A stretch of DNA of 64,000 nt from Candidatus Nomurabacteria bacterium. GTDB taxonomy: Bacteria > Patescibacteriota > Minisyncoccia > Phycocordibacterales > UBA9973. Shown piece after piece: positions 1,633 through 52,084 of this stretch. The notes beneath the pieces are model-generated. The model was given only the letters and a program-made list of their open reading frames with translations. It had not been told where the DNA came from and ran no database searches. The DNA lies in contig JBPOHU010000003.1 in assembly GCA_052035195.1 (NCBI GenBank), positions 17,453 through 81,452 on the forward strand, read 5' to 3'. The translations under genes and the position numbers were made by a program. Each line of letters begins with the position of its first letter. Positions within the stretch are counted from its first letter, which is position 1.

Positions 1633-2640
1633 ATGAAAAAAATAAGTTTGCTCTTTGTAATCTTCGCGCTTTTAAGCGCACAAATAGTTAAAGCGTCTGA
1701 AATAAGGGACGCAACTCTCAAGGAACAAGGAAAGCAGAATGAAGCTAGCACTGTTGCTTGGCTTACATCCGCAAATCCTGATCCGTCACTGATCACAATG
1801 ACAGTAAGCCAGTTTAATGTAGGCTTTAAAGCCTGCATTACTGAGTTTAATGCGAAGTATAAAAGCTTCGACGTCATTACAGATGATATTCTCAATAACC
1901 TGGTGCAAAAACTTTACACCGCAGACCTGGACCCCAACAAGCTTTATACCGTTTCATATTGGGACGTAAAAAATCAAAAATGGGGTCGCTGGACGCGTAA
2001 AGCCAAGCCTGGCGAAGCAGGTTTGTTTTATCCCGGCTGGGAAGAGCCAGTCCTGAGTGTTTATTGTTGGAATTTTGGTTATCCGGAAAAAGATATAAAA
2101 CCCGCAGCTCCTTCTGTAAAAGAGAGAGAGGTGGAATATGTTAATGTTCCCGGAAAAACTAAGTATATCCATACTTCAGACACTGTCTATGAGAGGCATG
2201 ACAGCTACAAGGAGGTGCAGAATAATTTCTTTTTGAATACGAATAATAATACATTCGCTTCAACAAAAAACACTTCACTGTCCTACGATGTGGATATGGA
2301 TGACCAGCAACCTGAAAATCAGGCTTCCTGTAGTTGTCCTGAACCTCAGAAAAAGGTTGTAAGTTATGCTGCTAATCAACAAACATCTTGTGGTTGTGAT
2401 AAAGATCACATCTGCTATGAGCATTATCAGAAGCTTCCTTCTAAAAAAAGAAAGCCCTTAGGCCAAAGAGCTTGGTTTAAAGTAGGGACCCATCTCGTAG
2501 CATTTACTGCCGGATGGTTTGGTAATGAGTGGTTTGGTAATGGAAGGACTCGCGGTTCTGGCCAAGTTATCAACCAAGGTCCGCTCGACCTTCTTCCTAC
2601 TACAAACCCGATTTACAACCAGGGACCATTGTGGCAATAG
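1633..2640 (+). CDS. Secreted hypothetical protein, Cys-rich C-terminal part
   Basis: N-terminal signal peptide MKKISLLFVIFALLSAQIVKA; no recognisable family. Confidence 0.55.
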   Translation: MKKISLLFVIFALLSAQIVKASEIRDATLKEQGKQNEASTVAWLTSANPDPSLITMTVSQFNVGFKACITEFNAKYKSFDVITDDILNNLVQKLYTADLDPNKLYTVSYWDVKNQKWGRWTRKAKPGEAGLFYPGWEEPVLSVYCWNFGYPEKDIKPAAPSVKEREVEYVNVPGKTKYIHTSDTVYERHDSYKEVQNNFFLNTNNNTFASTKNTSLSYDVDMDDQQPENQASCSCPEPQKKVVSYAANQQTSCGCDKDHICYEHYQKLPSKKRKPLGQRAWFKVGTHLVAFTAGWFGNEWFGNGRTRGSGQVINQGPLDLLPTTNPIYNQGPLWQ

Positions 2641-2788
2641 TTTTAACTATTTATTTTCAAAAGTGCTGGTTTATACCGGCACTTTTTTATTCTTTAGGAC
2701 CTTATCTGTCTCAGATAGGGAGTTAAAGAATGGTATTGACAAAAGAGGCATTATTTGCTATAATACCAGTGTCGAAATTAAGAAAGAG

Positions 2789-4711
2789 ATGAGAAAAAAA
2801 TTTATGAAACAATTTATTTATTCAACACTAACTGCATTTTTTGGTCTAGCTCTATTGGCTAGCCCTGCTTCTGCAGCTGCAGTGTTCAATAGTCCGGGCG
2901 AAATGCCGACTGTTACTGTTTCTACAGGTACATGTCAGCAAGTTGCTATAAACGGATGTTGGCAACCAACAGCCACAGGTAGTGCAGATGGCACTATTGG
3001 TGTGCATATCTTTTATCACAATACAGGTAGTACTGCCGCACAAGGCACAACTATCCGTATAAGTCCTCAAGTACAAGGACCAACAACTTCTGCTTCTTTT
3101 AGTGGAAGTGTTAGTGCTACAAATGCATCAACAGTTTCTGGAAATGCATCAGTTAGTATTTCAAGCTCACAAACAGTGACCTTCATTGATGCTAAATGGT
3201 ACCCAGGAGCAAATAGTGCAGGAAGCGCTGTTAGTGGAAGTGAATTATTCGGAAGTGGTTTTAATGTAGGGACAGTAGGTGCCGGAGATTACGGTAAACT
3301 TGTTGCTCGATTTAAAATCTCAAACGTAATAGTAGTTCAAAACTATCAGTGTAATGACAACATCGATAACGATGGGGACGGTCTTCGTGACTACCCAAGT
3401 GATCCAGGTTGTTCATCTTCTACAGATAATGATGAGTATGACCAAGTTAATACACAATGTGTAATTGATAGCTTCTATGCTTCACCTACATATGTAACTT
3501 CTGGTGGATACACAACACTTTATTGGAGTACAACAGGTTGTGACTATGTAACTATCGACGGGGTGTCTTACCCAGTAGACGGTTCAGGATCATTCGGTCC
3601 TATCTATAGTTCACGAAACTATGTTCTCCAAGGGGTTCGTGGTGGAGTAAGTCGAACACAAACTGTTTTTGTAACAGTTAATCAAACTCCTACATATACA
3701 TACCAATGTAATGATGGATACGATAACGATGGCGATGGTCTTCGTGACTACCCAGCAGATCCAGGTTGTTCTACCTATAACGATGATAGTGAATACAATC
3801 AAGTTATAAATAACACTCAACCACAAGCTATAACTACTGTCGCTACTATATTAGGACAAAGTTCTGCTCGCCTTAATGGTATTGCAGTTCCAAATTCTAC
3901 ATACAGTACAACAGCATGGTTTGAATGGGGAACAAGTGGTTCTCTAGGATCTAGAACAAATACTCAGTCAGTAAATAACAACTCTAGTACATATATTAGT
4001 GAGGGATTAAACAACCTTACTCCTGGAGCTGTTTATTACTACCGAACAGTTGTTCAAAACCAAAACGGTACTGCTTATGGCGATATCGTAAGACTACAAA
4101 CACAAAAAGGTACTATTACTCCAACTCCAACACCTGTAAAAGTAATCACTAAAGTGGTTAATAGAGATGTTGTTGTTGCCAGAAGTAATGCTTCTTTGTT
4201 AGAGCTACGTGTTGAAAATGTTTATGACAGAATGTGTGTTGGTGGAGAAATGGATTACACTGTTTCTTACAAAAACATCAGTAGTCAAACACTTCAAAAT
4301 GCAGTACTTAGAATTACTCATCCAAAAGAGCTTACATTTATAAATAGCTCAAGAGGAGACTATGAAGTAGTAGATCGAACTGTGACTATCGCTCTTGGAA
4401 ATATTCCAGCAGGTGGAACAGGCTCACTACAAGTTCGTGCACGAGTAAATACAAGTGCTGTTGTTGGAAACCTTGCTGTTACTACAGCAACAGTGGTTTA
4501 TACAAACCCTACTAACAAAGCTCAAGAAGATGCTATAGCATATTCACTAGTTACAGTTTCAAACGACTGTCCAAATACAAACAACTTTGGTGCTAGTGCA
4601 TTTGGTATCTCATCATTTTTCCCTTCAACATTACTCGGATGGCTTATTCTCATCTTGGTCATCCTTGCCCTTATTGTTCTAGGAAGACAACTATATAAAA
4701 AGCGAGACTAA
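2789..4711 (+). CDS. Large cell-surface protein with paired Ca-binding-like DxDxDG repeats, DUF11-like repeat domain and C-terminal TM anchor
   Basis: Start MRKKFMKQF at 2789 with signal peptide (ORF-track start 2519 overlaps the upstream gene). Two copies of QCNDxxDNDGDGLRDYPxDPGCS; C-terminal FPSTLLGWLILILVILALIVLGRQLYKKRD. Confidence 0.6.
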   Translation: MRKKFMKQFIYSTLTAFFGLALLASPASAAAVFNSPGEMPTVTVSTGTCQQVAINGCWQPTATGSADGTIGVHIFYHNTGSTAAQGTTIRISPQVQGPTTSASFSGSVSATNASTVSGNASVSISSSQTVTFIDAKWYPGANSAGSAVSGSELFGSGFNVGTVGAGDYGKLVARFKISNVIVVQNYQCNDNIDNDGDGLRDYPSDPGCSSSTDNDEYDQVNTQCVIDSFYASPTYVTSGGYTTLYWSTTGCDYVTIDGVSYPVDGSGSFGPIYSSRNYVLQGVRGGVSRTQTVFVTVNQTPTYTYQCNDGYDNDGDGLRDYPADPGCSTYNDDSEYNQVINNTQPQAITTVATILGQSSARLNGIAVPNSTYSTTAWFEWGTSGSLGSRTNTQSVNNNSSTYISEGLNNLTPGAVYYYRTVVQNQNGTAYGDIVRLQTQKGTITPTPTPVKVITKVVNRDVVVARSNASLLELRVENVYDRMCVGGEMDYTVSYKNISSQTLQNAVLRITHPKELTFINSSRGDYEVVDRTVTIALGNIPAGGTGSLQVRARVNTSAVVGNLAVTTATVVYTNPTNKAQEDAIAYSLVTVSNDCPNTNNFGASAFGISSFFPSTLLGWLILILVILALIVLGRQLYKKRD

Positions 4712-15991: not shown

Positions 15992-17065
15992 GTGAATATT
16001 CTAAGTAGATTATTTCCAACACCAAACTCTATTGCTATTCCAACAGTCGGATTAGATTTTTCTGATTCAACTATGAGATTTATGTCCTTGGAGATTCATC
16101 CGAAAGGTCTTTTGCCAAAAAATTTTGCTCAAGCTTCTATTCCGGAAGGTTGCATGAAAGGAGGTAAAATAATAGACACTGAAAAATTTATTAAATTTCT
16201 TAAGCAGATTAAAAAAGATTATAAACTCAAGTACGCTCGTATATCTATTCCGGAGTCACAAGTTTATTCTTTTACTTTGTCTTTAGACTATAGCGCAAGA
16301 GAAGATATAAGAGGTGCCATAGAAGTTCTTATCGAAGACAATATACCTCTTAAAGCCATTGAAACAGTTTTTGATTATCATGTTTTGAGCGTATCTGAAA
16401 AGTCTATAGTTGTTCAGGTGGTGGCCCTCTCTGAAGCTGTTGCAACAAATTATTTTAATGCTTTTGCTGATGCTGGCATTATCCCTGTTAGTTTTGAGCT
16501 TGAAGGACAAGCTATTACTAGAGCAGTTATTGATCCAGAAGATACGGGCTCTTGTATGATTGTTGATTTTGGGGCCAACAGAACTGGTATAACCATCGTT
16601 ACAAATAAGACAGCCATGGTTACCGCTACACTAGACTTCGGAGGTAATACTTTGTCACAAATGTTGGCAAAAGAAATGAACCTTTCTTTTGCTGATGCTG
16701 AAAAGATTAAGAGAGAGCATGGCTTGGCAACACTCGGAGAGCATAAAGATGTTTTTCTAGTTTTAGCAAATGGTATTTCAGTTTTAAAAGACGAAATAAA
16801 TAGGCGTTATGTTTATTGGCACGAAAAGAAAGATCAGCTCGGAGGTTTTCCAGCTATCGATACTATCTATCTTTGTGGCGGGCATAGTAACCTAATAGGT
16901 CTCGATGAGTATTTAAGTGCTAGTTTGAAACTAAAGGTTGTTCAAGTAAATCCTTGGAGAAACTGTTTTTCTTTAGATAAGCATATTCCCCAGATAAATA
17001 AAGAAGTATCTATGAGTTATGTTACCGCTGTAGGGCTTGCTTTAGCTGATTATATATATGATTAA
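15992..17065 (+). CDS. pilM: Type IV pilus assembly protein PilM (actin-like ATPase)
   Basis: 357-aa actin-fold protein (VGLDFSDSTMRF..., IVDFGANRTGITIV) directly upstream of pilN and pilO; alternative (GTG) start. Confidence 0.65.
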   Translation: MNILSRLFPTPNSIAIPTVGLDFSDSTMRFMSLEIHPKGLLPKNFAQASIPEGCMKGGKIIDTEKFIKFLKQIKKDYKLKYARISIPESQVYSFTLSLDYSAREDIRGAIEVLIEDNIPLKAIETVFDYHVLSVSEKSIVVQVVALSEAVATNYFNAFADAGIIPVSFELEGQAITRAVIDPEDTGSCMIVDFGANRTGITIVTNKTAMVTATLDFGGNTLSQMLAKEMNLSFADAEKIKREHGLATLGEHKDVFLVLANGISVLKDEINRRYVYWHEKKDQLGGFPAIDTIYLCGGHSNLIGLDEYLSASLKLKVVQVNPWRNCFSLDKHIPQINKEVSMSYVTAVGLALADYIYD

Positions 17066-24412: not shown

Positions 24413-26191
24413 ATGAAAATTTCTTATAACTGGTTACAAAATCATATAGAAGAAAAGCTCCCAAGTCCTGAAAGTCTCAGAGAGACTATTATTTTTCATG
24501 CGTTTGAAGTTGAAGACGTTGAAGAGAAGGGAGCAGATACTATTTTTGATATTAAGGTCTTGCCTGATAGGGCTCATGATTGTTTAAGTCATACTGGTGT
24601 CGCTAAAGAAGTCTCTGGTTTGCTCGGTTTAACTCTTAAAAACCCTTCTTTGCCAGAACTTCCTTTTACTCCCATAAATACAAAAGTTGAAATACAAAAT
24701 GAATTAGTTCGTAGGTATATGGCAATAGAGATGACAGGGGTAAAAGTTGGTCCTTCTCCAGAGTGGCTTAAAAATGCACTCGAATCTGTGGGTGCGAGAT
24801 CTATCAACAATATAGTTGATGCGACAAACTTAGTACTCTTAGATGATGGACAGCCTGTGCACGCATTTGATAAAGATAAAATAGACGGAGGAATAGTTGT
24901 ACGAATGGCTCATGAAGAAGAAAAGATAGTTACTCTTTCTGATGAAGAAAAAGTTTTGAAAAATACAGATCTTATTATTGCTGATTATTTAGGAGCACTT
25001 GCTATAGCTGGGGTAAAGGGTGGTAAAAGTGCTGAAATAACAGAAGACACAACAAATATTATTATTGAGATTGGAAATTTCGATCCAGTAGCAATTCGTA
25101 AGACATCTCGAAGACTCGCTCTTATTACTGACGCATCAAAGAGATTTGAAAATGAAATTAGCGCAGAAGTTGCCTCTGGTGCAGCTCGTCATGTTGTAAG
25201 TATCATAAAGCAAATTGCAGGGGGTGAAGTTGTAGGAGTATATGATCACTATCCTAAACCAGAACAAGAAAGAACACTTAGTTTTACCGTCGCTGATATC
25301 AAAAGGGTTCTCGGTGATACTATCAAAGAAGCACAAATAGATCTTTGGATTTCTAGATACAATATCTCCTCTACAAAAGATGGTGACAAATATACGATCA
25401 CTATACCAAGTGACAGACTAGATATTGTGGGTGCTCATGATATTGCTGAAGAGATAGGTAAGATGGTTGGTTATGAAAATATTCCGGCATTACCTATTCC
25501 TTTTACTCTTACTCCACAAAAAGATTCAGAATATAGAGTTGTGACTTCTGTGAAATATTGGCTTGCTCAAAATGGTTTTAGAGAGGTGATGAATTATAGC
25601 TTTACCAAAAAGGGTGATGTTTATATTTCTTATGGTGCTAAAGACAAAAGCGCTCTTCGAACCAACCTTTCAGATGCTCTAAAAGAAAGCTACGAAAAAA
25701 ACCGCATTAATGCCAGTTTGTTAGGTCTAAGTAGTATTAGAATATTTGAGATAGGTACTGTTTTTATAGGAGAAACAGAAATGGTGCATGTGGCTACTTG
25801 TGACAAGGGGAATTTTGAAGAGTTACCAATAAAAGACTTTATAGAAAAATACAAAATTGAAATTTCTAGTACTCCTAACAATTACTCACTACCTAATAAC
25901 TCTTTCAAAATGTGGTCCCCATATCCATACATTACTCGCGATATTGCAGTATGGTGCGATAGTATTGAGTCGCAAACTAGCCTTGAGGCTATTGTTAGTA
26001 GTTTTGCAAAAGAGCATTGTGTACGAGAGCCAGAGCTTTTTGACCGCTTTGAAAAGGATGGAAAAACATCTATAGCCTATAGGTTTGTATTTCAATCATA
26101 CGAGAAGACTTTGACTGAGGAGGAAGTAGAGAAGTGGTTTGTAGAACTTGTAAACAAAATAAAAGCCGAAAAAGTTTTTGAAATAAGATAG
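24413..26191 (+). CDS. pheT: Phenylalanine--tRNA ligase beta subunit (short form)
   Basis: MKISYNWLQNHIE start typical of PheT, B3/4 and B5 domains; immediately follows pheS. Confidence 0.85.
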   Translation: MKISYNWLQNHIEEKLPSPESLRETIIFHAFEVEDVEEKGADTIFDIKVLPDRAHDCLSHTGVAKEVSGLLGLTLKNPSLPELPFTPINTKVEIQNELVRRYMAIEMTGVKVGPSPEWLKNALESVGARSINNIVDATNLVLLDDGQPVHAFDKDKIDGGIVVRMAHEEEKIVTLSDEEKVLKNTDLIIADYLGALAIAGVKGGKSAEITEDTTNIIIEIGNFDPVAIRKTSRRLALITDASKRFENEISAEVASGAARHVVSIIKQIAGGEVVGVYDHYPKPEQERTLSFTVADIKRVLGDTIKEAQIDLWISRYNISSTKDGDKYTITIPSDRLDIVGAHDIAEEIGKMVGYENIPALPIPFTLTPQKDSEYRVVTSVKYWLAQNGFREVMNYSFTKKGDVYISYGAKDKSALRTNLSDALKESYEKNRINASLLGLSSIRIFEIGTVFIGETEMVHVATCDKGNFEELPIKDFIEKYKIEISSTPNNYSLPNNSFKMWSPYPYITRDIAVWCDSIESQTSLEAIVSSFAKEHCVREPELFDRFEKDGKTSIAYRFVFQSYEKTLTEEEVEKWFVELVNKIKAEKVFEIR

Positions 26192-34019: not shown

Positions 34020-35729
34020 ATGTTAAAAGCACTAGAACAGGGGATTAAAAAAGTAGTAGAGGAGCTCGGCCTGCCTGAGGTGACTTTTTCTCTTGAGCAC
34101 CCAAAGGAGCTCTCTCATGGAGACTATATGACCAATGTAGCCCTGATTGTAGGTAAACAAGAAAATAAAAACCCTATAGAGCTCGCAGGAACTATTGCTA
34201 AAAATCTAAAAAACCAAAATATCGAAGGAGTAGAAAGTATTGAAGTAGCAGGCCCAGGATTTATAAACTTCACACTCAAGCGACAAGTGTTTGTTAAAGG
34301 GTTAGTTGGTGCACAAGATAGTGAGTGGGGTAACACTGATGTATACGCGAACAAAAAGATTTTGATAGAACACTCAAGTCCAAACCTTTTCAAACCATTT
34401 CACATTGGACACTTGATGAACAACACAATCGGTGAAGCTCTCTATCGACTAGCGAAATCTTCTGGTGCACATGCAACTCCTATTTCTTTCCCATCTGACA
34501 TTTCTCTTGGTGTAGCAAAAGCGATTTATATTCTTCTTGAAAAATACGGAGAAGACTTTGTGCCGACTGATGTCTCAGTGCTCGGGGATGCTTATGTCGA
34601 AGGTGTAAGAAAATACCAAGAAGCAGAAGAAGAACAACCATGTGGAAGTATTGTGTATCGAGTGAAAGAAATCGCTGATAATTTATATGCACAAAAAGAT
34701 TCTCCAGAATTTACACTTTTTAATGCATGTAAAAAGTTAAATATTGCATATTTTGAATCAATTTTAAAAAACCTAGGATCTCACTTTGATTCATATATAT
34801 ATGAAAGTGAGGTCGGAGATGATGGAAAAAGAATTGTATTAGAAAATACTCCAAAGATATTCACTGAAAGTGAAGGAGCGGTTGTGTATATTCCAGAAGA
34901 GGGTAGCAAGCTCCATACCGCTGTCTTTATCAACAGCCAAGGAAATCCTACATATGAAGCAAAGGATATCGGTCTTCTTGATTTGAAATTCTCTCGTTAT
35001 CAACCAGATATTTCTATTACTGTCACTGACAATCAACAAACCTCACACTTCCAAGTAGTAGTAGATGCGGCTGGAAAAATAAATCCCGCATGGCAAAACA
35101 ATAGTGTGCACCGAAGTCACGGTCGCATGAGTTTCAAAGGCTCTAAGATGTCTTCTCGTCTAGGCAACGTGCCTCTCGTTGAAGATATCCTCTCTACTGT
35201 TTCAGAAGAGGTAAAAGAGAAAAATCCTGATGTGTCTGAAGAGGTAGCAAAACAGGTCTCTATCGCTGCTATTAAGTTTGCTATCCTTCGTACACAAGCT
35301 GGCAAGGATATAAATTTTGATCCCGATACTTCACTTTCATTCGAAGGGGATAGTGGTCCTTATCTGCAATATACCGCAGTACGAGCCGGAGCTCTTCTTG
35401 AGAAAGGGAAAGCTTTGGGTATCACTCCAAACACTGATACTCCTGTAGCAGGCCTGCCTGCGCAGGCAGGTGCAGAGACACTTGAGAGATTGATTGCTCG
35501 CTTCGTAGAGGTGGCAGGAGAAGCACAAAAGTCATGGGCACCACACTATGTAGTCTCATACCTTCTCGAGCTCGCACAAGCCTTCAACTCCTGGTATGGT
35601 CAAGGCAAGATTGTAGATGCGGAAGATGTGTCAGGTACAGCCTACCGCCTTTCTGTGGTTGCAGCAGCCCGCCAGACCCTCATAAACGGCCTCTGGGTCC
35701 TGGGTATTGAAACTCCTGAGAAGATGTAA
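34020..35729 (+). CDS. argS: Arginine--tRNA ligase
   Basis: HIGH motif SSPNLFKPFHIGHLMNNTIGEAL, ArgRS anticodon-binding C-terminal domain; 569 aa. Confidence 0.9.
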   Translation: MLKALEQGIKKVVEELGLPEVTFSLEHPKELSHGDYMTNVALIVGKQENKNPIELAGTIAKNLKNQNIEGVESIEVAGPGFINFTLKRQVFVKGLVGAQDSEWGNTDVYANKKILIEHSSPNLFKPFHIGHLMNNTIGEALYRLAKSSGAHATPISFPSDISLGVAKAIYILLEKYGEDFVPTDVSVLGDAYVEGVRKYQEAEEEQPCGSIVYRVKEIADNLYAQKDSPEFTLFNACKKLNIAYFESILKNLGSHFDSYIYESEVGDDGKRIVLENTPKIFTESEGAVVYIPEEGSKLHTAVFINSQGNPTYEAKDIGLLDLKFSRYQPDISITVTDNQQTSHFQVVVDAAGKINPAWQNNSVHRSHGRMSFKGSKMSSRLGNVPLVEDILSTVSEEVKEKNPDVSEEVAKQVSIAAIKFAILRTQAGKDINFDPDTSLSFEGDSGPYLQYTAVRAGALLEKGKALGITPNTDTPVAGLPAQAGAETLERLIARFVEVAGEAQKSWAPHYVVSYLLELAQAFNSWYGQGKIVDAEDVSGTAYRLSVVAAARQTLINGLWVLGIETPEKM

Positions 35730-40612: not shown

Positions 40613-41197
40613 ATGGAAAACGAAGACAAACACGGACATTTGAAAATAAAACTTGGAGTCTCTGGTGCTGCTGAAACAGGCCACTGTGGTCTTGATGCTC
40701 TTGATAAAGCTAAAGAGCTCGGTAGAGAAGTTGTAAGACAAGGTGGTATTTTGGTAACAGGAGCTACAACAGGATTTCCTTTGTGGAGTGCTATGGGCGC
40801 AAAAGAAGAGAGAGGTATCTCTATCGGTCTTTCTCCTGCGTCAAATCCAAGAGAACATGTAGAAGGGTACAGACTACCGCTCGACTATATGGATCTCATC
40901 ATATATACAGGTTTTGGTTTTCCTGGAAGAGACCTTCTTTTTACTAGAAGTTGCGAAGCTTTGCTTATAGGTTGTGGACGTATAGGAACAATCCATGAAT
41001 TTACTATCGCTTTCGAAGAAGGGAAACCTATCGGAGTTCTAGAAGGAAGTTGGACTATGGATGAACAGATCCGTGACATGATAGAAAAAGGTAATAGACC
41101 AGCTGATAAAGTAATTTTTGATTCAGATCCAAAGCGATTGATAGAGAGGGTTATTAAAATGGTTGAAGCTGATAGGGCTGATTTGAATAAGAAATAA
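40613..41197 (+). CDS. LOG/SLOG-family Rossmann-fold protein (TIGR00725-like)
   Basis: ILVTGATTGFPLWSAMGA and LLIGCGRIGTIHEF resemble the LOG family GGGxG and PGGxGT motifs. Confidence 0.5.
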   Translation: MENEDKHGHLKIKLGVSGAAETGHCGLDALDKAKELGREVVRQGGILVTGATTGFPLWSAMGAKEERGISIGLSPASNPREHVEGYRLPLDYMDLIIYTGFGFPGRDLLFTRSCEALLIGCGRIGTIHEFTIAFEEGKPIGVLEGSWTMDEQIRDMIEKGNRPADKVIFDSDPKRLIERVIKMVEADRADLNKK

Positions 41198-41204
41198 GCC
41201 CATG

Positions 41205-41411
41205 GTAGTATAGGAGCACAAGCTTTGAAGGATTATCGCCCCTTCGTCCGCCTTGGGTAGACAAGCTTCAGAAAGAAATCCTAAATGGAAATTAGAATCT
41301 GACGGGTAAGCCCGATATAGCAGTAAATGAGTATTAAGTAAGGTGGTACCACGAGCAAAACTCGTCCTTGCACTATGACCAAAAGTCGTAATGCGCGGAC
41401 GAGTTTTATTT
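41205..41411 (+). promoter_or_regulatory. Probable T-box leader (Ile specifier) upstream of ileS
   Basis: T-box-like sequence AGTAAGGTGGTACCACGAG (41337-41355) overlapping terminator gcaaaactcgtcc...ggacgagtttt-T7; upstream stem region contains GAAGGATTATCG (AUU-A candidate specifier). Confidence 0.5.
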
Positions 41412-41418
41412 TTTATAT

Positions 41419-44400
41419 ATGGATAACAATCAACAACAATCAAAATCTCAATCAGCTCTTCGAGAAGAAGAAGTACTTCAATTTTGGAAAGAAAAAGATA
41501 TTTTCAAGAAATCAGTTGAAAAGAATGTCACAGGCAAAGAATTTGTCTTTTTTGAAGGCCCACCGACAGCAAATGCAAAACCAGCACTTCACCACCTTGA
41601 AGCTCGTGCTTTCAAGGACGTGATACCTCGATACAAAACAATGCAGGGCTATCATGTAGCTCGTCGCGCAGGATGGGACACTCACGGTCTTCCAGTAGAG
41701 CTTCAAATAGAAAAAGCTCTTGGCTTAGAATCAAAGAAAGATATTGAGAAGTATGGAGTAGCAGCTTTTAATAAAGCCTGCAAAGAAAGCGTTTTCACTT
41801 ATATTAAAGATTGGGAAATTTTCACCGATCGTATGGGGTATTGGGTGGACAAAAAGAGTGCTTACTATACTTTCAACTCTTCTTATATGGAATCCCTCTG
41901 GCATATAGTCGGAGAAATAAATAAAAGAAATTTACTTTATAAAGATTACAAAGTTGTCCCATGGTGCCCTCGTTGTGGTACAGGACTTTCTTCTCATGAA
42001 CTCGCACAAGGCTATCAAGATGTAAAAGACTTGTCAGTGTATGCAAAGTTTAAAATTGTAGGACTTGAAAAAGCGTATTTTCTTGCTTGGACTACAACAC
42101 CATGGACTCTTCCAGGTAACGTAGCTTTGGCTGTTGGTAATGATATTGAATATGTTGAAGCAAAAGTAGGTGATGAAATTTTTGTTCTTGCAAAAGAAAG
42201 ACTTAGTTTACTTGCAGAAGGTTATGAGATTATTGCACAGCACAAAGGTTCTGAAATGATAGGAATGGAATATGAACCACTTTATCCATATCTCAAGAGA
42301 GAAGCAGAGAAGAAAGGGTTGGATACAACAAAAGCATTCAAGGTTTATACTGCCGACTTTGTTACAACTACTGATGGTACTGGTATTGTACATATAGCAC
42401 CGATGTATGGGGCAGATGACTTTGATCTTGGAACAAAGATGGGACTGACTAAATTCCACACTGTTAACGAAGGAGGACACTTTATTCCAGGCACTGATTT
42501 TCTAGAAGGACGTTTTGTAAAGGATGAGTCTGTAGCTGTAGACATTATCAAAGATCTTGCTGGCCGAGGACAACTTTTCAAAAAAGAAAAATACGAACAC
42601 TCATATCCACATTGTTGGCGATGTAAAACTCCGCTTTTGTATTATGCGCGAGACTCTTGGTATGTTCGCATGAGTGAGCTCCGTGACGATTTGCTCAAAG
42701 CAAACGATGACGTTAACTGGGAACCAGAACATATAAAAAATGGAAGATTTGGAGAATGGCTTCGAGAGGTTAAAGACTGGGCATTTTCTCGTGAGCGATA
42801 TTGGGGGACACCACTGCCTGTATGGGAGAGTGTCGATGGAGATAGAGTAGTTGTTGATTCTATTGATACTCTCAAGAAACTCTCTATTACTTCTCAAAAC
42901 AAATACTTCGTCATGCGCCACGGTCAAACAGACCACAATGTTCGTCAAGAATGGAATGCCACAATAACAAATCCAGATCCTCTTACAGAGAAGGGTATAC
43001 AACAAGTTAAAGATGCATCAAATAATTTCAAAGAAGATATAGATATCATTATTACTTCTCCTTTTTCTCGAACCAAAGAGTCAGCTCAAATCTTCAAAGA
43101 AACAAAAGGACTAAATGTTGAGATAATAGAAGACCCACGTATTGCCGAATGGAATGTCGGTAAAGAGTTTGATGGAAAACCATTTTCAAAATATTTTGAA
43201 GTTAGAAATGTAAATGAAGATCGGTATGGATTCAAGGCTTCTGACGGAGAATCATACTTGGATATATTGAAAAGATCAGGGGAATTTATTTATGATTTAG
43301 AATCAAAATATAAAGGCAAAAGAGTGCTTATCATGACGCACGGAGCCGTAGCTCGAGCGCTCGAACTCCATAGCCACGGTATATCTTTTGATTCTCTATA
43401 CAGAAATACTAGAGATTACAACAACTTTGAAAATGCTGATCTTCGAGAGATTAATTTTGTACCATTACCTCACAATGAAAACTTTGAGTTAGATTTACAC
43501 AAGCCTTATATCGACGAAGTGGAACTGTACAAGGATGGCAAAAAGCTCACTCGAGTAAAAGAAGTGATGGACGTATGGTTCGATAGTGGAGGTATGCCTT
43601 TTGCACAAGAGCATTATATGGGTGAAGGTACACTTTCGTATCCGGCTGATTTCATTTCAGAAGCCATAGATCAAACTCGAGGTTGGTTCTATACACTTCT
43701 TGCTGTTGGTGTACTTATGAATCGAGAGTCTCCATATAAAAATGTGATTTGTCTTGGGCACCTACTCGACAAAGACGGAAAGAAGATGAGTAAGTCTATC
43801 GGTAATATAGTTGAGCCATTTGAACAAATGGATACTTTTGGTGCGGATGCAGTAAGATGGTGGATGTATAGTGTTAATGCTCCAGGGGAGAGCAAGAACT
43901 ATGATCCTAAAAGCGTAGCCGAAATAAATAACAAAGTCTTTAATTTGTTTAACAACGTTTTATCTTTCTATGAACTTTATAGAGACAAAGAACTTGAAGA
44001 TCAAAATAATAAAAGTGAAAATATTTTGGACAAATGGATATTAGCAAGGCTAAATCAAACTCTAGCAGAGGTAACAAATTCTCTTGATGCTTATGATCTT
44101 TTCCGTCCAACTCGAGCTCTTCGAGACCTCATAGACGACCTTTCTACTTGGTATTTGCGACGAAGTCGTGATCGTATCAAAGATGGAGAAAAGCAGGCAA
44201 AGCAGACGCTCTACTATGTGCTCAAAAATACAGCTCAAGCTATGGCTCCTTTTGCACCATTTTTTGCAGAGCATGTATGGCAGAAGCTTAAGCTTGATTC
44301 AGATGCAGAAAGTGTTCACTTAGCCCTTTGGCCCGATTATCAAGAAGCTGACTCTGAGCTTATAAATAATATGCAAATTACCAGAAACTTTTGTACAGCA

Positions 44401-44796
44401 GGAAATGCGTTTCGTAAATCAAAAAATATCCCAATTAGACAGCCTCTTAAGCTTATGAAAATATCATATGATGCTTTATCAAAAGATCTTACTTCTCTTA
44501 TAGAAGAAGAACTTAATATAAAAATGGTTTTAGTTGATACTGAAATTCAGCCAGCAGGAGAGATATATGTTGATGAAGAAATTACTCCAGAACTCAAACT
44601 CGAAGGGGAATACCGCGAGCTAGTTCGCTTGGTCCAAGACATGAGAAAAGAAAAAGGTCTTACTCCACAAGATGAGATCTCTCTAACACTTCCAGAAAAG
44701 TACAATGAAATATTTGCTAAATTTGGCGAAGAATTGAAAAAGGTTGTTGGTGCGAGGGAAGTGTCAGTACAAGGAGAAGAAGTTATGCTTAGTTAG
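41419..44796 (+). CDS. ileS: Isoleucine--tRNA ligase with an embedded histidine-phosphatase (PGAM-like) domain
   Basis: HIGH-region PPTANAKPALHHLEARAFKD, editing domain, KMSKS (KKMSKSIGN). ~200-aa insertion with FVMRHGQTDHN and LIMTHGAVARAL between RYWGTPLPVWE and DVWFDSG. Confidence 0.9.
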   Translation: MDNNQQQSKSQSALREEEVLQFWKEKDIFKKSVEKNVTGKEFVFFEGPPTANAKPALHHLEARAFKDVIPRYKTMQGYHVARRAGWDTHGLPVELQIEKALGLESKKDIEKYGVAAFNKACKESVFTYIKDWEIFTDRMGYWVDKKSAYYTFNSSYMESLWHIVGEINKRNLLYKDYKVVPWCPRCGTGLSSHELAQGYQDVKDLSVYAKFKIVGLEKAYFLAWTTTPWTLPGNVALAVGNDIEYVEAKVGDEIFVLAKERLSLLAEGYEIIAQHKGSEMIGMEYEPLYPYLKREAEKKGLDTTKAFKVYTADFVTTTDGTGIVHIAPMYGADDFDLGTKMGLTKFHTVNEGGHFIPGTDFLEGRFVKDESVAVDIIKDLAGRGQLFKKEKYEHSYPHCWRCKTPLLYYARDSWYVRMSELRDDLLKANDDVNWEPEHIKNGRFGEWLREVKDWAFSRERYWGTPLPVWESVDGDRVVVDSIDTLKKLSITSQNKYFVMRHGQTDHNVRQEWNATITNPDPLTEKGIQQVKDASNNFKEDIDIIITSPFSRTKESAQIFKETKGLNVEIIEDPRIAEWNVGKEFDGKPFSKYFEVRNVNEDRYGFKASDGESYLDILKRSGEFIYDLESKYKGKRVLIMTHGAVARALELHSHGISFDSLYRNTRDYNNFENADLREINFVPLPHNENFELDLHKPYIDEVELYKDGKKLTRVKEVMDVWFDSGGMPFAQEHYMGEGTLSYPADFISEAIDQTRGWFYTLLAVGVLMNRESPYKNVICLGHLLDKDGKKMSKSIGNIVEPFEQMDTFGADAVRWWMYSVNAPGESKNYDPKSVAEINNKVFNLFNNVLSFYELYRDKELEDQNNKSENILDKWILARLNQTLAEVTNSLDAYDLFRPTRALRDLIDDLSTWYLRRSRDRIKDGEKQAKQTLYYVLKNTAQAMAPFAPFFAEHVWQKLKLDSDAESVHLALWPDYQEADSELINNMQITRNFCTAGNAFRKSKNIPIRQPLKLMKISYDALSKDLTSLIEEELNIKMVLVDTEIQPAGEIYVDEEITPELKLEGEYRELVRLVQDMRKEKGLTPQDEISLTLPEKYNEIFAKFGEELKKVVGAREVSVQGEEVMLS

Positions 44797-45995: not shown

Positions 45996-47891
45996 ATGTC
46001 TTCTGAAGAAATAGACCATATCGCACAACTTCAACAAAAGCTATATGCTCGTGATCCTGAGAGTGCCCCTAAGCGCACTGTTGGTATTTTGCGCCCTCTT
46101 AAGTCAAGAGTTGAATCTTCTTGGGGGCAAGAAGATTTGGTCAAAGAAAAAAAGCGCCACATACCCATGATTTCTGGTTATAGAAGATTTTTTATTTTCT
46201 CTTTTATTTTTTTCTTAATAGCTCTGGCTGTTGCATTTTTCTCTGTTTATCGCGGAGCTGTTACTCTCTCAAGTAAAAATGTTGAGTTAACTATTTTAGG
46301 TAATTCTTTTGTTGCAGGAGGGGAGAGCTTGCCAATACAAGTAGATATGATTAACAAAAACTCTGCAGACCTTGTAGACGCTGAAATAACTATCTCTTAT
46401 CCCAAGGGGTCGATGGATGTAAGTGGTGCAGAAATGGAAAGGGTAAAAAAGGTTTTGGGTACTATATCTTCAGGAAAGACGAAAACAGAAGGATTCTCCG
46501 TTATTCTATATGGTGAGCAAGGTACTAGTCGAACAGTGACTGCTACTCTTGAATATAAGCTTGCTGGGTCAAATACAACGTTCGTCAAAGAGAAATCTTT
46601 TTCCGTTATGATAAATTCTTCTCCCGTATCACTCACTGTGGATGCTCCTACATCAACAGCTTCAAATCAACCATTTAATATGACTATCAGAACCGTCTTT
46701 ACTGGAGACTCAATACTGGAAGACGCTATTGTTAGAGTTGAATATCCAAATGGTTATGTTTTCTCTTCTGCTGTACCAGCCCCAGAGAGCGGAACAAATG
46801 TTTGGGCACTTAAAGATTTGGTTAAAGGAACAGAGAGAACTATTTCTATAAGAGGGAAATTGATAGGAGAAGAGCAAGATGAAAAAGCTTTTCATATTTA
46901 TGTAGGATCAAGATCTAGTGAGACAGATTCACGAATTGCTGTTTCTTATAATTCTGTTTTACATAGCACTACTATAGAACAACCATTTATCTCTGGTGTT
47001 ATAAGTATTGGTAATGTACAAGATGATGTTGTCGCTCTTCCAAGCGGGTCTAATGTCTCAGGTGTTATTAAGTTTGTTAACAATGCCCCTATTAGGATTA
47101 CAAACCCTATTTTTACTTTGTATTTAAATGGGGAGACTATCGGTGTTGATTCAATAGAAGCTCGAGGTGGTAGATATGACCCTTTGGAGAAAACTATCGT
47201 TTGGAATAATGAAACGAGCTTGGACTTATCTGCCATAGAAAGTGGTGCTCAAGGAGAACTTCCTTTTAGTTTCAATACAACACTACCTAAGCCGGGTACT
47301 GCAGGGGATATAAACTTGTCGCTTTCGGTTTCCGGAGTTTTCCCTGATAGAGACTTTTTTGAAGATAGTATCTCTGATATTGATCAAAAGATAATCCGTT
47401 TTTCTTCTCGTTTGCAGTTTGCTTCTCAGTCTCTTTATTCAGTGGGCCCTATAAAAAACACAGGACCATTTCCGTCTAGGGTAGATAAGGAAACGACATA
47501 TACTATTTCTTGGACAATGAAACCAGTCGAAAACCCTCTTTCAAAAGCTGTAGCTACAGCAGTACTGCCTCTCGGCGTGTCTTGGACAGGGGTTATTTCT
47601 CCTCAATCTGAAAATGTTTCTTTTGACCCAGAAACAAGAATAGTTTCTTGGGCAATAGGATCTATTCCAAGAGCTACTACAAATGCTTTTACTCGCTCAG
47701 TTGCTTTCCAGGTAAAGGTTAAACCAACTAAAAGTCAGCTAGATTCCGACCTTGATTTAATAGGAGAGACAACTATTAACGCAACAGATACTATAGCCAA
47801 TACGCCTTTGACAATAAGTCGACCAGCCCTTACTAATCGCCTAAGTACTGACCCTATCTATTCCCCAGGGAAGGAAAAAGTGCTACCATAG
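45996..47891 (+). CDS. Membrane-anchored protein with extracellular beta-sandwich repeats, hypothetical
   Basis: TM at aa ~60-85 (FFIFSFIFFLIALAVAFFSVY), then ~540 aa Thr/Ser/Val-rich beta-type repeats. Confidence 0.5.
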   Translation: MSSEEIDHIAQLQQKLYARDPESAPKRTVGILRPLKSRVESSWGQEDLVKEKKRHIPMISGYRRFFIFSFIFFLIALAVAFFSVYRGAVTLSSKNVELTILGNSFVAGGESLPIQVDMINKNSADLVDAEITISYPKGSMDVSGAEMERVKKVLGTISSGKTKTEGFSVILYGEQGTSRTVTATLEYKLAGSNTTFVKEKSFSVMINSSPVSLTVDAPTSTASNQPFNMTIRTVFTGDSILEDAIVRVEYPNGYVFSSAVPAPESGTNVWALKDLVKGTERTISIRGKLIGEEQDEKAFHIYVGSRSSETDSRIAVSYNSVLHSTTIEQPFISGVISIGNVQDDVVALPSGSNVSGVIKFVNNAPIRITNPIFTLYLNGETIGVDSIEARGGRYDPLEKTIVWNNETSLDLSAIESGAQGELPFSFNTTLPKPGTAGDINLSLSVSGVFPDRDFFEDSISDIDQKIIRFSSRLQFASQSLYSVGPIKNTGPFPSRVDKETTYTISWTMKPVENPLSKAVATAVLPLGVSWTGVISPQSENVSFDPETRIVSWAIGSIPRATTNAFTRSVAFQVKVKPTKSQLDSDLDLIGETTINATDTIANTPLTISRPALTNRLSTDPIYSPGKEKVLP

Positions 47892-47897
47892 CCCATA

Positions 47898-49304
47898 ATG
47901 AAAGTATCTATGGAACAACTCATTAGTTTATGTAAGCGCCGGGGTTTTGTATTCCCGTCTTCTGAGATATATGGTGGTATGGCTGGAGTTTATGACTACG
48001 GTCATTATGGAAGTCTACTTAAAGACAATATTCGTTCTGCTTGGCTTCGTCATATGGTACAGCTCCGAGAAGATGTAGTTGGTCTTGATAGTGCTATTTT
48101 TATGCATCCAACTACTTGGAAGGCGTCGGGTCATGTCGATGGATTTAATGATCCTCAAGTAGATTGTAAAAACTGTAAATCTCGTTTTCGAGCTGACCAT
48201 ATACTTGAAGACCTCGGCATTTCTGCTGACAAGGCTAGTATAGAATTTATAAATCAAGAACTAGATAAATTAAGAGAAGATAAAAAGCTAGTCTGTCCAA
48301 ATTGTAATAAAGCCACTCTTACAGAAGCTCGAGTGTTTTCAATGATGGTTAAGTCTAACCTAGGTTCTCCTGTTGATGTTCTCGATGAAGAAAATGTAGT
48401 TTATCTTAGGCCGGAGACTTGTGGTGGTATTTATCTTGAATACAAAAATACATTAGATAGTCTTCACCCAAAACTTCCTTTTGGTATTGCTCAAGTAGGT
48501 AAAGCTTTTAGAAATGAAATAGCGGCTAGACAGTTTATTTTCCGAACTAGAGAGTTTGAACAAATGGAAATGCAATACTTTCACAAGAAAGAGCAAACCA
48601 AAGACGTTTTTGAAAGATGGCAAGAAGCCAGAATGAAATGGTATCTCGCATATGGTATCCCCGAAGAGAAGCTTCGTTGGTTTAAACATGAAAAGCTAGC
48701 TCATTATGCAAGTGAGGCTTATGACATAGAGTATGATTTTTCTGGACTAGATGGATTCAAAGAAGTAGAAGGGATACATGCTCGAGGAGATTGGGATCTA
48801 TCTCAACACTCTAAGTTCTCAGGAGTAGACCTGTCTTATTTTGATGAAGAAACAAAAGAGAGATTTATCCCTCATATTGTAGAGACATCAGCAGGACTCG
48901 CACGTCACTTTTTGATGTTTCTAGATAATGCTTATACAGAAGAAGAAACTGAAAGTGGAGATACTAGAGTATTTTTGAAACTTCACGGTGCTCTAGCTCC
49001 TATAAAGTGTGCAGTCTTTCCACTTCTTAAAAACAAGCCTGAACTTGTAGCAAAAGCACGAGAAGTATTTCTAACACTACGAACAAAGTTTATGTGTGAA
49101 TTTGATGACAACGGAAACGTAGGCAAGAGATATCGCCGACAAGATGAAATAGGTACACCATTTTGTGTTGTAGTTGATTTTGATACTCTCGGAGAAACTC
49201 CAGATTTGTTTGATACTGTTACTGTTCGAAATCGTGATACGGGTAAGCAAGATAGAATAGCGATATCAGAGCTAGAAAAATACATAGAAGATCGAATAAA
49301 ATAA
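47898..49304 (+). CDS. glyQS: Glycine--tRNA ligase (alpha2 dimeric type)
   Basis: MKVSMEQLISLCKRRGFVFPSSEIYGGMAGVYDYGHYG, class II motifs, anticodon-binding C-terminus. Confidence 0.9.
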   Translation: MKVSMEQLISLCKRRGFVFPSSEIYGGMAGVYDYGHYGSLLKDNIRSAWLRHMVQLREDVVGLDSAIFMHPTTWKASGHVDGFNDPQVDCKNCKSRFRADHILEDLGISADKASIEFINQELDKLREDKKLVCPNCNKATLTEARVFSMMVKSNLGSPVDVLDEENVVYLRPETCGGIYLEYKNTLDSLHPKLPFGIAQVGKAFRNEIAARQFIFRTREFEQMEMQYFHKKEQTKDVFERWQEARMKWYLAYGIPEEKLRWFKHEKLAHYASEAYDIEYDFSGLDGFKEVEGIHARGDWDLSQHSKFSGVDLSYFDEETKERFIPHIVETSAGLARHFLMFLDNAYTEEETESGDTRVFLKLHGALAPIKCAVFPLLKNKPELVAKAREVFLTLRTKFMCEFDDNGNVGKRYRRQDEIGTPFCVVVDFDTLGETPDLFDTVTVRNRDTGKQDRIAISELEKYIEDRIK

Positions 49305-50617: not shown

Positions 50618-52084
50618 ATGGAAAATAAAAAATTTTATATAACTACAACTTTACCTTATGTGAATTCTGATCCACATGTTGGTTTTGCCATGGAAATAAT
50701 ACGAGCTGATAGTATCGCTAGGTTTAAAAAACTATTGGGTTATGAAGTATTTTTCAATACTGGCACTGATGAGCATGGACAAAAACTTTTAGCGGATGCT
50801 ACTAAAGCGGGTAAGACACCAAAAGAATATGTAGATTATTATGCAGAACAATTTAGAGGACTAAAAGATCTTTTGGGTATAACAGAAGATGTACATTTTA
50901 TTCGTACTACAGACGAACACCATGAAAAGGCAGCTCAAGAGCTTTGGAAGATTGTAGAGAAAAATGGCTATATATATAAAAAGAATTATCAAGCTAAATA
51001 TTGTGTTGGTTGTGAGCTTGAAAAAACAGATAGTGAGCTCAACGAAGAAGGCCAGTGTCCTATACACCCAGGGAAAGATTTGGAAATAATAAATGAAGAA
51101 AATTACTTTTTTGCCTTTTCTAAGATTGCTCCAATGATTGAAAATCTTTACAAAGAAAAACCTTCTTTGGTTATACCAGAATTTAGGTTTAATGAAATGA
51201 AAGCTTTTTTATCTAGAGGAATAGAAGATTTTTCTATTTCAAGATTAAAGAGCAAAATGTCTTGGGGAGTACCGGTACCAGGAGATGAAGAGCACGTGAT
51301 GTATGTTTGGTTTGATGCTCTTACTAACTATATTTCTACATTGGGATGGCCAGAAGATGAGAAAGGTTTTTTCAGAGATTTTTGGCAAGAAGGAGAGAAG
51401 GTTCAATATTGTGGTAAAGATAATACTCGCCAACAATCAATGATGTGGCAAGGAATGTTGCTTGCAGCCGGATTACCAACAACAGATCATATAATAATAA
51501 ATGGTTTTATAAATTCTGGTGGGCAAAAAATGTCTAAATCTTTAGGAAATGTTTTAAGCCCCTATGATATCATCGCTATTTTCGGAGCTGTAGCAGGAGA
51601 GCGATCTAGCGATGTTTTAAGATATTATTTACTTCGTCATATGAATTCTTTTGAAGATTCTGATATGACACTCGAGAGTTTAAATGAAGCCTATCAATCT
51701 GGACTCTCTAATGGTATTGGAAACTTAACTTCACGCATAATGACATTATCCGAATCTCACTGTGAAGGTTTTGATGAGCTTCCAAATGTTATGCATCCAG
51801 AAAATATAATAAAAGCAGTTGAGTCTTTCGATATTCAAAAAGCTATGAACTACATTTGGGAAAACATTGCAACTATTGATCAAAAAATTCAAATTACCAA
51901 ACCTTTTTCTGTTATTAAAGAAGACAGGGAAGCAGGAATTGCCATTATCAACGGTCTTGTTTCTGATCTATACGGTATTGCTATATCTCTTGCTCCATTT
52001 ATGCCAAAGACAAGTGAAAGTATTATTGAATGCATTCGTAATAATAAAAAACCAGAAGTACCACTTTTTGCACGCTTACAGTAA
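50618..52084 (+). CDS. metG: Methionine--tRNA ligase (short form)
   Basis: TTTLPYVNSDPHVGFAMEII (HIGH-type), zinc knuckle CVGCELEK...CPIH, KMSKS (QKMSKSLGN); 488 aa. Confidence 0.9.
   Translation: MENKKFYITTTLPYVNSDPHVGFAMEIIRADSIARFKKLLGYEVFFNTGTDEHGQKLLADATKAGKTPKEYVDYYAEQFRGLKDLLGITEDVHFIRTTDEHHEKAAQELWKIVEKNGYIYKKNYQAKYCVGCELEKTDSELNEEGQCPIHPGKDLEIINEENYFFAFSKIAPMIENLYKEKPSLVIPEFRFNEMKAFLSRGIEDFSISRLKSKMSWGVPVPGDEEHVMYVWFDALTNYISTLGWPEDEKGFFRDFWQEGEKVQYCGKDNTRQQSMMWQGMLLAAGLPTTDHIIINGFINSGGQKMSKSLGNVLSPYDIIAIFGAVAGERSSDVLRYYLLRHMNSFEDSDMTLESLNEAYQSGLSNGIGNLTSRIMTLSESHCEGFDELPNVMHPENIIKAVESFDIQKAMNYIWENIATIDQKIQITKPFSVIKEDREAGIAIINGLVSDLYGIAISLAPFMPKTSESIIECIRNNKKPEVPLFARLQ

Follow-up and report, generated by a model that had tools for sequence, protein, structure and literature searches.

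A candidate tRNA-Ile-responsive T-box leader with an ultrashort Stem I and an intrinsic terminator in front of ileS in Patescibacteria

The leader of ileS in the 64-kb window (the whole stretch of DNA analysed here) is probably a T-box riboswitch that responds to tRNA-Ile and controls ileS by transcription attenuation, using a decoding module of the Class III or "US" type. The analysis itself shows which sequence elements the leader has, that they co-vary and are conserved in 58 genomes, and that two folds of the leader compete.

Genomic context and detection of the leader

The intergenic region 41198-41418 (+) is bordered by a gene of the SLOG/LDcluster4 family (40613-41197) on the 5′ side and by ileS on the 3′ side, both on the plus strand. 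The features at the level of the locus are:

41183-41211 (+), candidate promoter, read from the sequence, with a -35 box TTGAAT (41183-41188), a 17-nt spacer and an extended -10 box TGgTAGTAT (41203-41211)
41220-41414 (+), T-box leader in front of ileS, the ATG of which is at 41419
41419-44796 (+), ileS, the regulated gene, 1125 aa, predicted type-2 isoleucyl-tRNA synthetase (Pfam and PDB sequence search)

The candidate promoter would place the start of transcription at about 41217-41219, 1-3 nt 5′ of Stem I. A TAnnnT box is located 5′ of Stem I in 54 of the 58 leaders, and its end is 8 nt from Stem I in 27 of them, the same distance as for the -10 box in the window; the family box often has TGTGn in front (TGTGnTAnnAT). 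The 41183-41211 site was not among the predictions of a consensus promoter scan.

In the PDB sequence search, the 8c8w group and T. thermophilus 1ile matched the IleS protein at about 790 bits, versus about 340 bits for S. aureus 1ffy, and with the IleRS types that we take these entries to represent, the scores identify the window protein as type 2. Residues 497-664 match the Pfam family His_Phos_1 (histidine phosphatase superfamily) with an E-value of 4e-29 and separate the synthetase core into two halves, such that the PDB matches fall into two stretches flanking the insert. A length of about 1115-1125 aa is common to IleS of the 80 Paceibacteria relatives described below. A phosphatase-fold insert in an aminoacyl-tRNA synthetase (aaRS) is unusual.

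At the gathering thresholds of Rfam, seven tRNAs and no T-box were identified in the 64-kb window. With permissive filters, the T-box model RF00230 matched positions 41216-41372 from end to end with 44.3 bits and an E-value of 1.1e-8 in a 401-nt search (1.7e-6 for the whole window), which is below the gathering score of 93. The discriminator, i.e., the T-box sequence and the antiterminator, was perfectly aligned, whereas the inner part of Stem I has 34 nt versus 86 in the model and Stem III has 0 nt versus 13. The score falls below the threshold because the distal half of Stem I, with the AG bulge, the distal loop and the tRNA-elbow platform, is missing. The first-pass annotation, which was made from the letters of the window, had named the absence of a hit above threshold as a result that would speak against a T-box; such a hit is formally absent, but this criterion is too strict for a divergent class and the element is real. 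RF00230 was the only non-tRNA family that matched the window with comparative support; three weaker non-tRNA matches were rejected, since they scored below threshold and belong to families that are not plausible in a bacterium. In a comparison with 200 shuffled sequences, the whole leader had a better fold than any of them (z = -4.0).

When species-representative genomes were scanned with IleS as the query, 80 loci with 55-75% identity were retrieved, 76 of which had upstream DNA. All 80 relatives are metagenome-assembled Patescibacteria of the Paceibacteria, Nomurabacteria, Zambryskibacteria or 'Minisyncoccia' kind; in the NCBI taxonomy, 'Candidatus Paceibacterota' is placed in the phylum Minisyncoccota of the kingdom Bacillati. 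A T-box had been considered phylogenetically informative at this locus from the letters alone, and with a CPR/Patescibacteria bacterium as the host this is borne out. Of the 76 loci with upstream DNA, 57 have the exact core GGTGGTACCRCG 5′ of ileS.

We built a covariance model, R1, from the leaders of 22 relatives. The seed was restricted to these because MAFFT alone misaligned leaders without IIA/B, and all leaders were realigned with the covariance model; counts out of 58 leaders cover those of the related genomes plus the window. The match to the T-box consensus before ileS in the first-pass annotation, AGTAAGGTGGTACCACGAG at 41337-41355, is confirmed by this model, which assigned the window leader 104 bits (E 3e-24), as compared to 30-141 bits for the relatives. 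R1 gave one match per genome in 57 of the 76 relatives, on the strand of ileS and immediately 5′ of it, and no further match in the approximately 750 kb searched, including the rest of the window. RF00230 scored just 36-59 bits on seven of the relatives, and leaders of the Paceibacteria clade are therefore missed by threshold-based annotation.

A metagenome scan for the AAGG-type core returned at least 120 loci. Among the matches listed, one (L106) belongs to the ultrashort class and the others are canonical long-Stem-I T-boxes of organisms that use Shine-Dalgarno (SD) sequences; neither a second specifier nor a second gene for the ultrashort class was found among these listed matches. A literature search for T-box in combination with CPR or Patescibacteria retrieved, among the papers covered by the library, none that links them.

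Decoding module and specifier

The 5′ part of the leader consists of Stem I, Stem II, the IIA/B region and a linker, with the following features:

41220-41268 (+), ultrashort Stem I, 49 nt, identified from the fold, the R1 match and compensatory changes in the basal and specifier helices
41220-25 / 41263-68 (+), basal helix of Stem I, AAGC(UU) / (AA)GCUU, with a K-turn-like UUU-GA / AA
41227-31 / 41241-45 (+), specifier hairpin GAAGG / CCUUC, five pairs, with the apical loop AUUAUCGCC, from the fold
41235-41238 (+), specifier AUC (Ile) with the 3′ purine G; the relatives have a conserved ATC[AG] in their apical or junction loop, and the downstream gene is ileS
41246-41262 (+), variable side hairpin GUC...GAC, 17 nt, on the 3′ side of the specifier hairpin, from the fold
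41269-41301 (+), Stem II, adjoining Stem I without a linker; all four pairs of the lower helix show compensatory changes
41269-72 / 41298-301 (+), lower helix of Stem II, CAGA / UCUG, with 98.7% of the cells paired
41273-78 / 41290-97 (+), internal-loop strands of Stem II, AAGAAA / AAUUAGAA, at the place of the putative S-turn-type strands GAAGAA / AGUAGAA of the family
41279-81 / 41287-89 (+), small cap helix of Stem II, UCC / GGA
41303-06 / 41311-14 (+), Stem IIA, CGG(G) / (C)CCG, 98-100% paired with compensatory changes
within 41303-41322 (+), candidate IIB pseudoknot, G41310-C41321 and C41311-G41320, with an A41309/A41322 mismatch in the window
41323-41337 (+), purine-rich single-stranded linker GUAAAUGAGUAUUAA, 15 nt, fold energy 0.0 kcal/mol

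Stem I has a median length of 31 nt in the family and is at most 34 nt long in 44 of the 58 leaders, as compared to 49 nt in the window. The Stem I with the specifier in a loop that had been suggested for this region exists in so far as GGATTATCG (41230-41238) is located at and in the apical loop of the hairpin 41227-41231 / 41241-45, but this Stem I is non-canonical and lacks the distal half; no AG bulge, distal-loop motif or elbow-binding platform (IDTM) is present in the window sequence.

The specifier was assigned to A41235, U41236 and C41237 followed by G41238 because these bases align with the conserved AUC-purine of the relatives. Columns 29-32 of the alignment contain A44, T45, C44 and A43 out of about 45 aligned rows, and ATC plus a purine was seen in nearly every leader by anchoring; the purine is A in most relatives and G in the window. 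The loop measures 6-7 nt in the relatives, where it is typically CUAUCA, and 9 nt in the window, where it includes UUAUCG, the loop sequence of L065. The AUC specifier is complementary to the anticodon GAU of tRNA-Ile; bacterial tRNA-Ile has the anticodon GAU and the discriminator A73, as is assumed for the host. No tRNA-Ile gene was identified in the window or in the 57 loci, and in the latter no tRNA genes at all were found.

The first-pass annotation had instead nominated AUU-A as the specifier. The specificity for isoleucine is retained, but AUUA (41232-41235) is 3 nt out of register with AUC-G, the bases that align to the AUC plus purine of 57 homologous leaders. AUUA at this site, with AUU being a codon for Ile, and a canonical T-box sequence and terminator could also be accommodated by a canonical T-box of Class I and the Firmicutes type, with a full Stem I and AUU plus A in an internal specifier loop. 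We consider this highly improbable: in place of a full Stem I there are 49 nt, of which 34 nt align to the 86-nt segment of the model, with neither an AG bulge nor a distal-loop motif, the triplet conserved in the 57 relatives is AUC plus a purine at 41235-38, and AUUA would abut the helix directly.

The side hairpin at 41246-41262 turns Stem I of the window into a three-way junction. It is found in the window genome only, and unrelated insertions into Stem I occur at the same position in L029, L051, L058 and L062. Where it is inserted, the K-turn has also lost the GA that is the consensus for its 3′ strand and reads AA there.

In Stem II, AGAA and UAGA are almost invariant in the family, and the internal loop may, from its sequence motif, be of the S-turn type, with the strand AUUAGAA in the window versus AGUAGAA in the family. 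The IIA/IIB region (41303-41322) contains an F-box-like CCCGAUA. On the seed alignment, the IIB pairs vary in a compensatory way (UA:7 AU:4 UG:3 GU:1 and GC:21 AU:1), and in the window IIB comprises two Watson-Crick pairs only. IIA/B was found in about 43 of the 58 leaders and is missing in about a quarter. A Stem III hairpin is present in about 28 and absent from about 30 of the 58 leaders; in the window, no pairing was predicted over the 25 nt from the 3′ end of IIA to the antiterminator.

Antiterminator, terminator and read-out

The 3′ part of the leader contains the following features:

41338-41371 (+), antiterminator, fold energy -9.4 kcal/mol, with the Rfam posterior probability '*' throughout
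41338-43 / 41366-71 (+), antiterminator helix A1, GUAAGG / CCUUGC, 100% paired in 59 rows
41344-50 (+), T-box bulge UGGUACC, 7 nt, in which UGGU is complementary to the ACCA-3′ end of tRNA
41351-55 / 41361-65 (+), antiterminator helix A2, ACGAG / CUCGU, 100% paired in 59 rows, with A-U in 39 and G-C in 20 rows at the first pair
41357-41414 (+), intrinsic terminator, with a hairpin at 41357-41407 of -28.0 kcal/mol (z = -7.8)

There is a single occurrence of the core AGGTGGTACCRCG in the 64-kb window, where 0.01 occurrences are expected by chance even with one mismatch, and UAAGGUGGUACCACGAG at 41339-41355 folds as helix A1, the 7-nt bulge UGGNACC and helix A2. The UGGU in the bulge would imply a tRNA with the discriminator A.

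The arms of the terminator are AAAACUCGUCC (41357-41367) and GGACGAGUUUU (41397-41407), with a G+C core formed by CUCGUCC (41361-67) and GGACGAG (41397-403). A clean run of seven T ending about 10 nt before ileS had been described for this terminator; the U-tract UUUUAUUUUUU (41404-41414) rather consists of four T, an A and six T, and it ends 4 nt before the ATG. The overlap of a strong terminator with the T-box was correctly recognized from the letters: the 3′ strand of the antiterminator (41361-41367) serves again in the 5′ arm of the terminator, and the two folds are mutually exclusive. Folding of the alternatives, which had been suggested as a check, gave a plausible antiterminator, and since this is much weaker than the terminator (-9.4 versus -28.0 kcal/mol), the default state would be OFF. 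A simple promoter and terminator scan reported no terminator at the leader, although the hairpin is clear from the folding; it was missed because it has internal mismatches and exceeds the loop and stem limits of the scan.

A strong hairpin, the 5′ arm of which is the 3′ strand of the antiterminator, was found in all 58 leaders (median -23.8 kcal/mol). In an automatic search, 56 of the 58 leaders had a complementary arm followed by at least five T in the next 9 nt, and a terminator and T-run were also seen on inspection in L011 and L019, the two that failed the simple U-tract search. In the 59-row alignment, 90.7% of the cells at paired positions are standard pairs, as compared to 29-49% if the partners are slid. 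Compensatory double changes were identified at 20 of the 26 pairs, and none of 500 shuffles reached the observed values. Each of the helices is backed by covariation, which is seen at all four pairs of the lower helix of Stem II, at the first pair of A2, in the specifier helix and in Stem IIA. The strand shared by the two folds (U41365 in the window) co-varies with both alternative partners, with the combinations A/U/A in 37, G/C/G in 19 and A/U/G in 2 leaders, and the shared heptamer has nine variants, each of which is matched by the terminator arm. Such three-way covariation is characteristic of a two-state switch.

From homology with T-boxes that have been studied, we infer tRNA binding, docking of Stem I on Stem II, sensing of the charge and termination itself. 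Transcription would begin a few nucleotides before 41220, and the nascent leader would fold into a minimal decoding module, in which the ultrashort Stem I would offer AUC-G in its apical loop, docked on Stem II and the IIA/B pseudoknot, and the GAU anticodon of tRNA-Ile would be read without contact to the tRNA elbow. If tRNA-Ile is uncharged, its free ACCA-3′ end would pair with UGGU (41344-47) and stabilize the weak antiterminator (-9 kcal/mol), such that CUCGUCC (41361-67) would be occupied and RNA polymerase would continue into ileS. If tRNA-Ile is charged or absent, CUCGUCC would pair with GGACGAG (41397-403) to form the -28 kcal/mol hairpin followed by the U-tract, and transcription would end 4-15 nt 5′ of the ATG. 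According to reviews, the fast co-transcriptional capture of tRNA by transcriptional T-boxes depends on the elbow-binding platform (PMC7583486), and the window element, which has no such platform, is at odds with this requirement.

All T-boxes with an ultrashort Stem I described so far are translational, and in the window the hairpin and the U-tract end 4-15 nt from the AUG, within the footprint of the ribosome, such that the OFF fold could hinder initiation on read-through RNA. A translational or dual T-box similar to the actinobacterial US class, in which the hairpin blocks the loading of ribosomes and termination is secondary, is nevertheless unlikely. There is no SD sequence in the upstream sequence inspected before the ileS ATG, nor any anti-SD pairing to sequester one, and SD-like motifs were found at only 5 of the 43 plus-strand ORFs in the window. 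Practically all of the 58 leaders have a U-tract behind the hairpin, a feature that a pure sequestrator could do without, and the hairpin is located 130-310 nt from the start codon in 17 relatives, where the U-tract is kept. With no SD before ileS, SD motifs rare and distant terminators with a U-tract in these 17 relatives, the SD-sequestering mechanism of the actinobacterial ileS type is unavailable, and transcription attenuation is the mechanism best supported by the sequences. A secondary effect of the hairpin on initiation may exist in the window, where the hairpin ends 12 nt before the AUG.

Many ORF starts in the window (e.g., at 15992, 26228, 30751, 34020, 39207, 47898, 49562 and 55005) have a -10 box, TAnnAT and often TGnTAnnAT, that ends 6-9 nt from the ATG, an arrangement suggestive of mostly leaderless mRNAs in this genome. 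The 17 relatives with a distant terminator include L010 and L018 as well as L016, L036, L040, L062 and L070. In L010 (2745-2960) and L018 (2755-2975), the gap between the terminator and ileS contains a shared putative small ORF on the opposite strand, and read-through transcripts in these two genomes would therefore be antisense to this ORF.

Relation to known T-boxes, distribution and evolution

T-boxes have been divided into Class I, with a long Stem I carrying the elbow platform and a Stem II; Class II, the glycine T-boxes without Stem II; Class III, with a short Stem I, the specifier in an apical loop of 5-6 nt and a required Stem II, as in ileS of N. farcinica; and Class IV, with an intermediate Stem I (PMC10482949). 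All members of Class III or 'US' in the published description are located at ileS (PMC10482949; 10.1101/2023.02.28.530422). The US ileS T-boxes of Actinobacteria include those of Mycobacterium tuberculosis, M. smegmatis and Nocardia farcinica, with the structures 6UFG and 6UFM in the PDB (cited in PMC7583486).

Compared to the published descriptions of the actinobacterial US/Class III leaders, the window element shares the ileS target, the AUC plus purine, the very short Stem I and the specifier in the apical loop (5-6 nt there, 9 nt in the window). Also shared are the absence of an elbow-binding double-T-loop platform, a Stem II with a putative S-turn-type loop that follows Stem I directly and is followed by a candidate IIA/B pseudoknot, a discriminator with a 7-nt UGGNACC bulge, and ileS as apparently the sole aaRS gene regulated by a T-box. 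The two groups differ in the read-out, which is an intrinsic terminator with a U-tract here and an SD sequestrator there, in the CPR host (Minisyncoccota), and in the absence of Stem III from the window and about half of the family and of IIA/B from about a quarter.

With Class I (Bacillus subtilis tyrS; RF00230), the element has in common the T-box sequence, the competition between antiterminator and terminator, the default OFF state, the K-turn-type base of Stem I, Stem II, the F-box or IIA/B region and a dedicated promoter just upstream. It differs from Class I in having its specifier in an apical loop, in lacking Stem III and in having a Stem I without the distal half that bears the specifier internal loop, the AG bulge and the distal loop. 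Six relatives (L052, L055, L061, L068, L074 and L078) resemble the Class IV ileS T-box of Actinomyces odontolyticus (PMC10482949) in having an extra hairpin 5′ of AUC, with the specifier at the junction of two Stem I helices. The window differs from Class IV in that its extra hairpin is on the 3′ side of the specifier hairpin and in its read-out by a terminator.

The window element can be described as a Class III/US decoding module joined to a Class I expression platform, additionally without Stem III, in a lineage from which T-boxes are not known to have been reported. The abstract of Sherwood et al. 2015 is said to call 'many', not all, atypical leaders translational, and because of this wording, terminator-type leaders with a short Stem I may already have been noted in Actinobacteria; we incline only slightly to the view that the combination of a Class III/US decoding module with a terminator is truly undescribed.

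The T-boxes in TBDB come from Firmicutes, Actinobacteria, Chloroflexi and Deinococcus-Thermus, and its short-Stem-I model was used only on Actinobacteria and on hits of the Rfam model (PMC7778990). Ultrashort leaders are currently missed because of this restriction of the TBDB short model (PMC7778990) and because the eight members tested fall far below the Rfam threshold; R1 finds them cleanly.

The window contains four other aaRS genes, pheT, argS, a class II aaRS and metG (24413-26191, 34020-35729, 47898-49304 and 50618-52084), and neither the permissive Rfam scan nor R1 identified a T-box at any of them. Two large ORFs in the window, 2519-4711 and 45996-47891 (730 and 631 aa), have weak matches to DUF11 repeats and otherwise no annotation.

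In the 19 relatives without the leader, an extended -10 box is located directly before the ileS ATG (e.g., TGTGCTAAAATCAGTCCAT|ATG), which implies, as far as can be read from this arrangement, that ileS is leaderless there. Ten such relatives (L006, L008, L013, L023, L037, L064, L066, L067, L069 and L071) have the -10 box about 20-30 nt before the start of ileS, and the upstream SLOG gene is kept in several of them (L008, L013 and L023). Since the same box and the SLOG synteny occur without the leader of about 200 nt, its presence or absence between the promoter and the start codon is a clean polymorphism.

Relative to the family consensus, the window is weaker at several positions, with AA in place of GA in the K-turn and with deviations in the S-turn strand and the IIB pseudoknot. 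Stem III, known from other T-boxes to be stacked on the antiterminator, is missing, and all of these features count against a functional T-box. Together with the 19 of 76 relatives that have lost or never had the leader, and in which ileS appears to be expressed from a leaderless promoter, they could point to a decaying relic of a T-box that no longer responds to tRNA, with a terminator that is constitutive or serves the upstream SLOG gene. That the helices, the specifier, the 7-nt bulge and the three-way covariation are kept down to 55% IleS identity makes this very hard to sustain, as do the dedicated candidate promoter between the upstream gene and Stem I and the harm that a constitutive terminator of -28 kcal/mol would do directly upstream of a gene that is essential and single-copy.

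For the functional riboswitch, we see a little more reason to believe than to doubt that the leaders represent a lineage-wide and previously undescribed class of T-boxes in Paceibacteria, about 150 nt long, with an ultrashort Stem I, often without Stem III, and acting by termination of transcription. The long Stem I of transcriptional T-boxes has been explained by the need for fast capture of tRNA before the polymerase reaches the terminator, and a short Stem I has been tied to translational control (PMC7583486; PMC11297988). A family that combines an ultrashort Stem I with a terminator would contradict the latter rule and provide a natural test of the kinetic capture argument, and co-transcriptional capture of tRNA and sensing of its charge would need neither the elbow platform nor Stem III. 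It would also extend T-boxes to the CPR, in agreement with a Terrabacteria/Bacillati affinity or with a co-transfer of type-2 ileS and its leader, and offer structural and synthetic biology a very small (about 150 nt) transcriptional sensor of tRNA. Reduced and probably symbiotic CPR bacteria, with mostly leaderless and SD-poor genes, would have kept a sensor for the charging of tRNA-Ile on one aaRS gene, and the presence or absence of the leader in close relatives provides a rare handle on regulation and evolutionary affinities in the CPR.

On contig Ga0172379_10000770 (L156), a T-box core CUAAGGUGGUACCACG...CGUCCUUGG is located at 1796-1917 (-), 5′ of a ProRS-like ORF. The 5′ part of this element is short, a long Stem I is not obvious and a U-tract terminator is lacking; the element may represent a second reduced T-box whose specificity differs.
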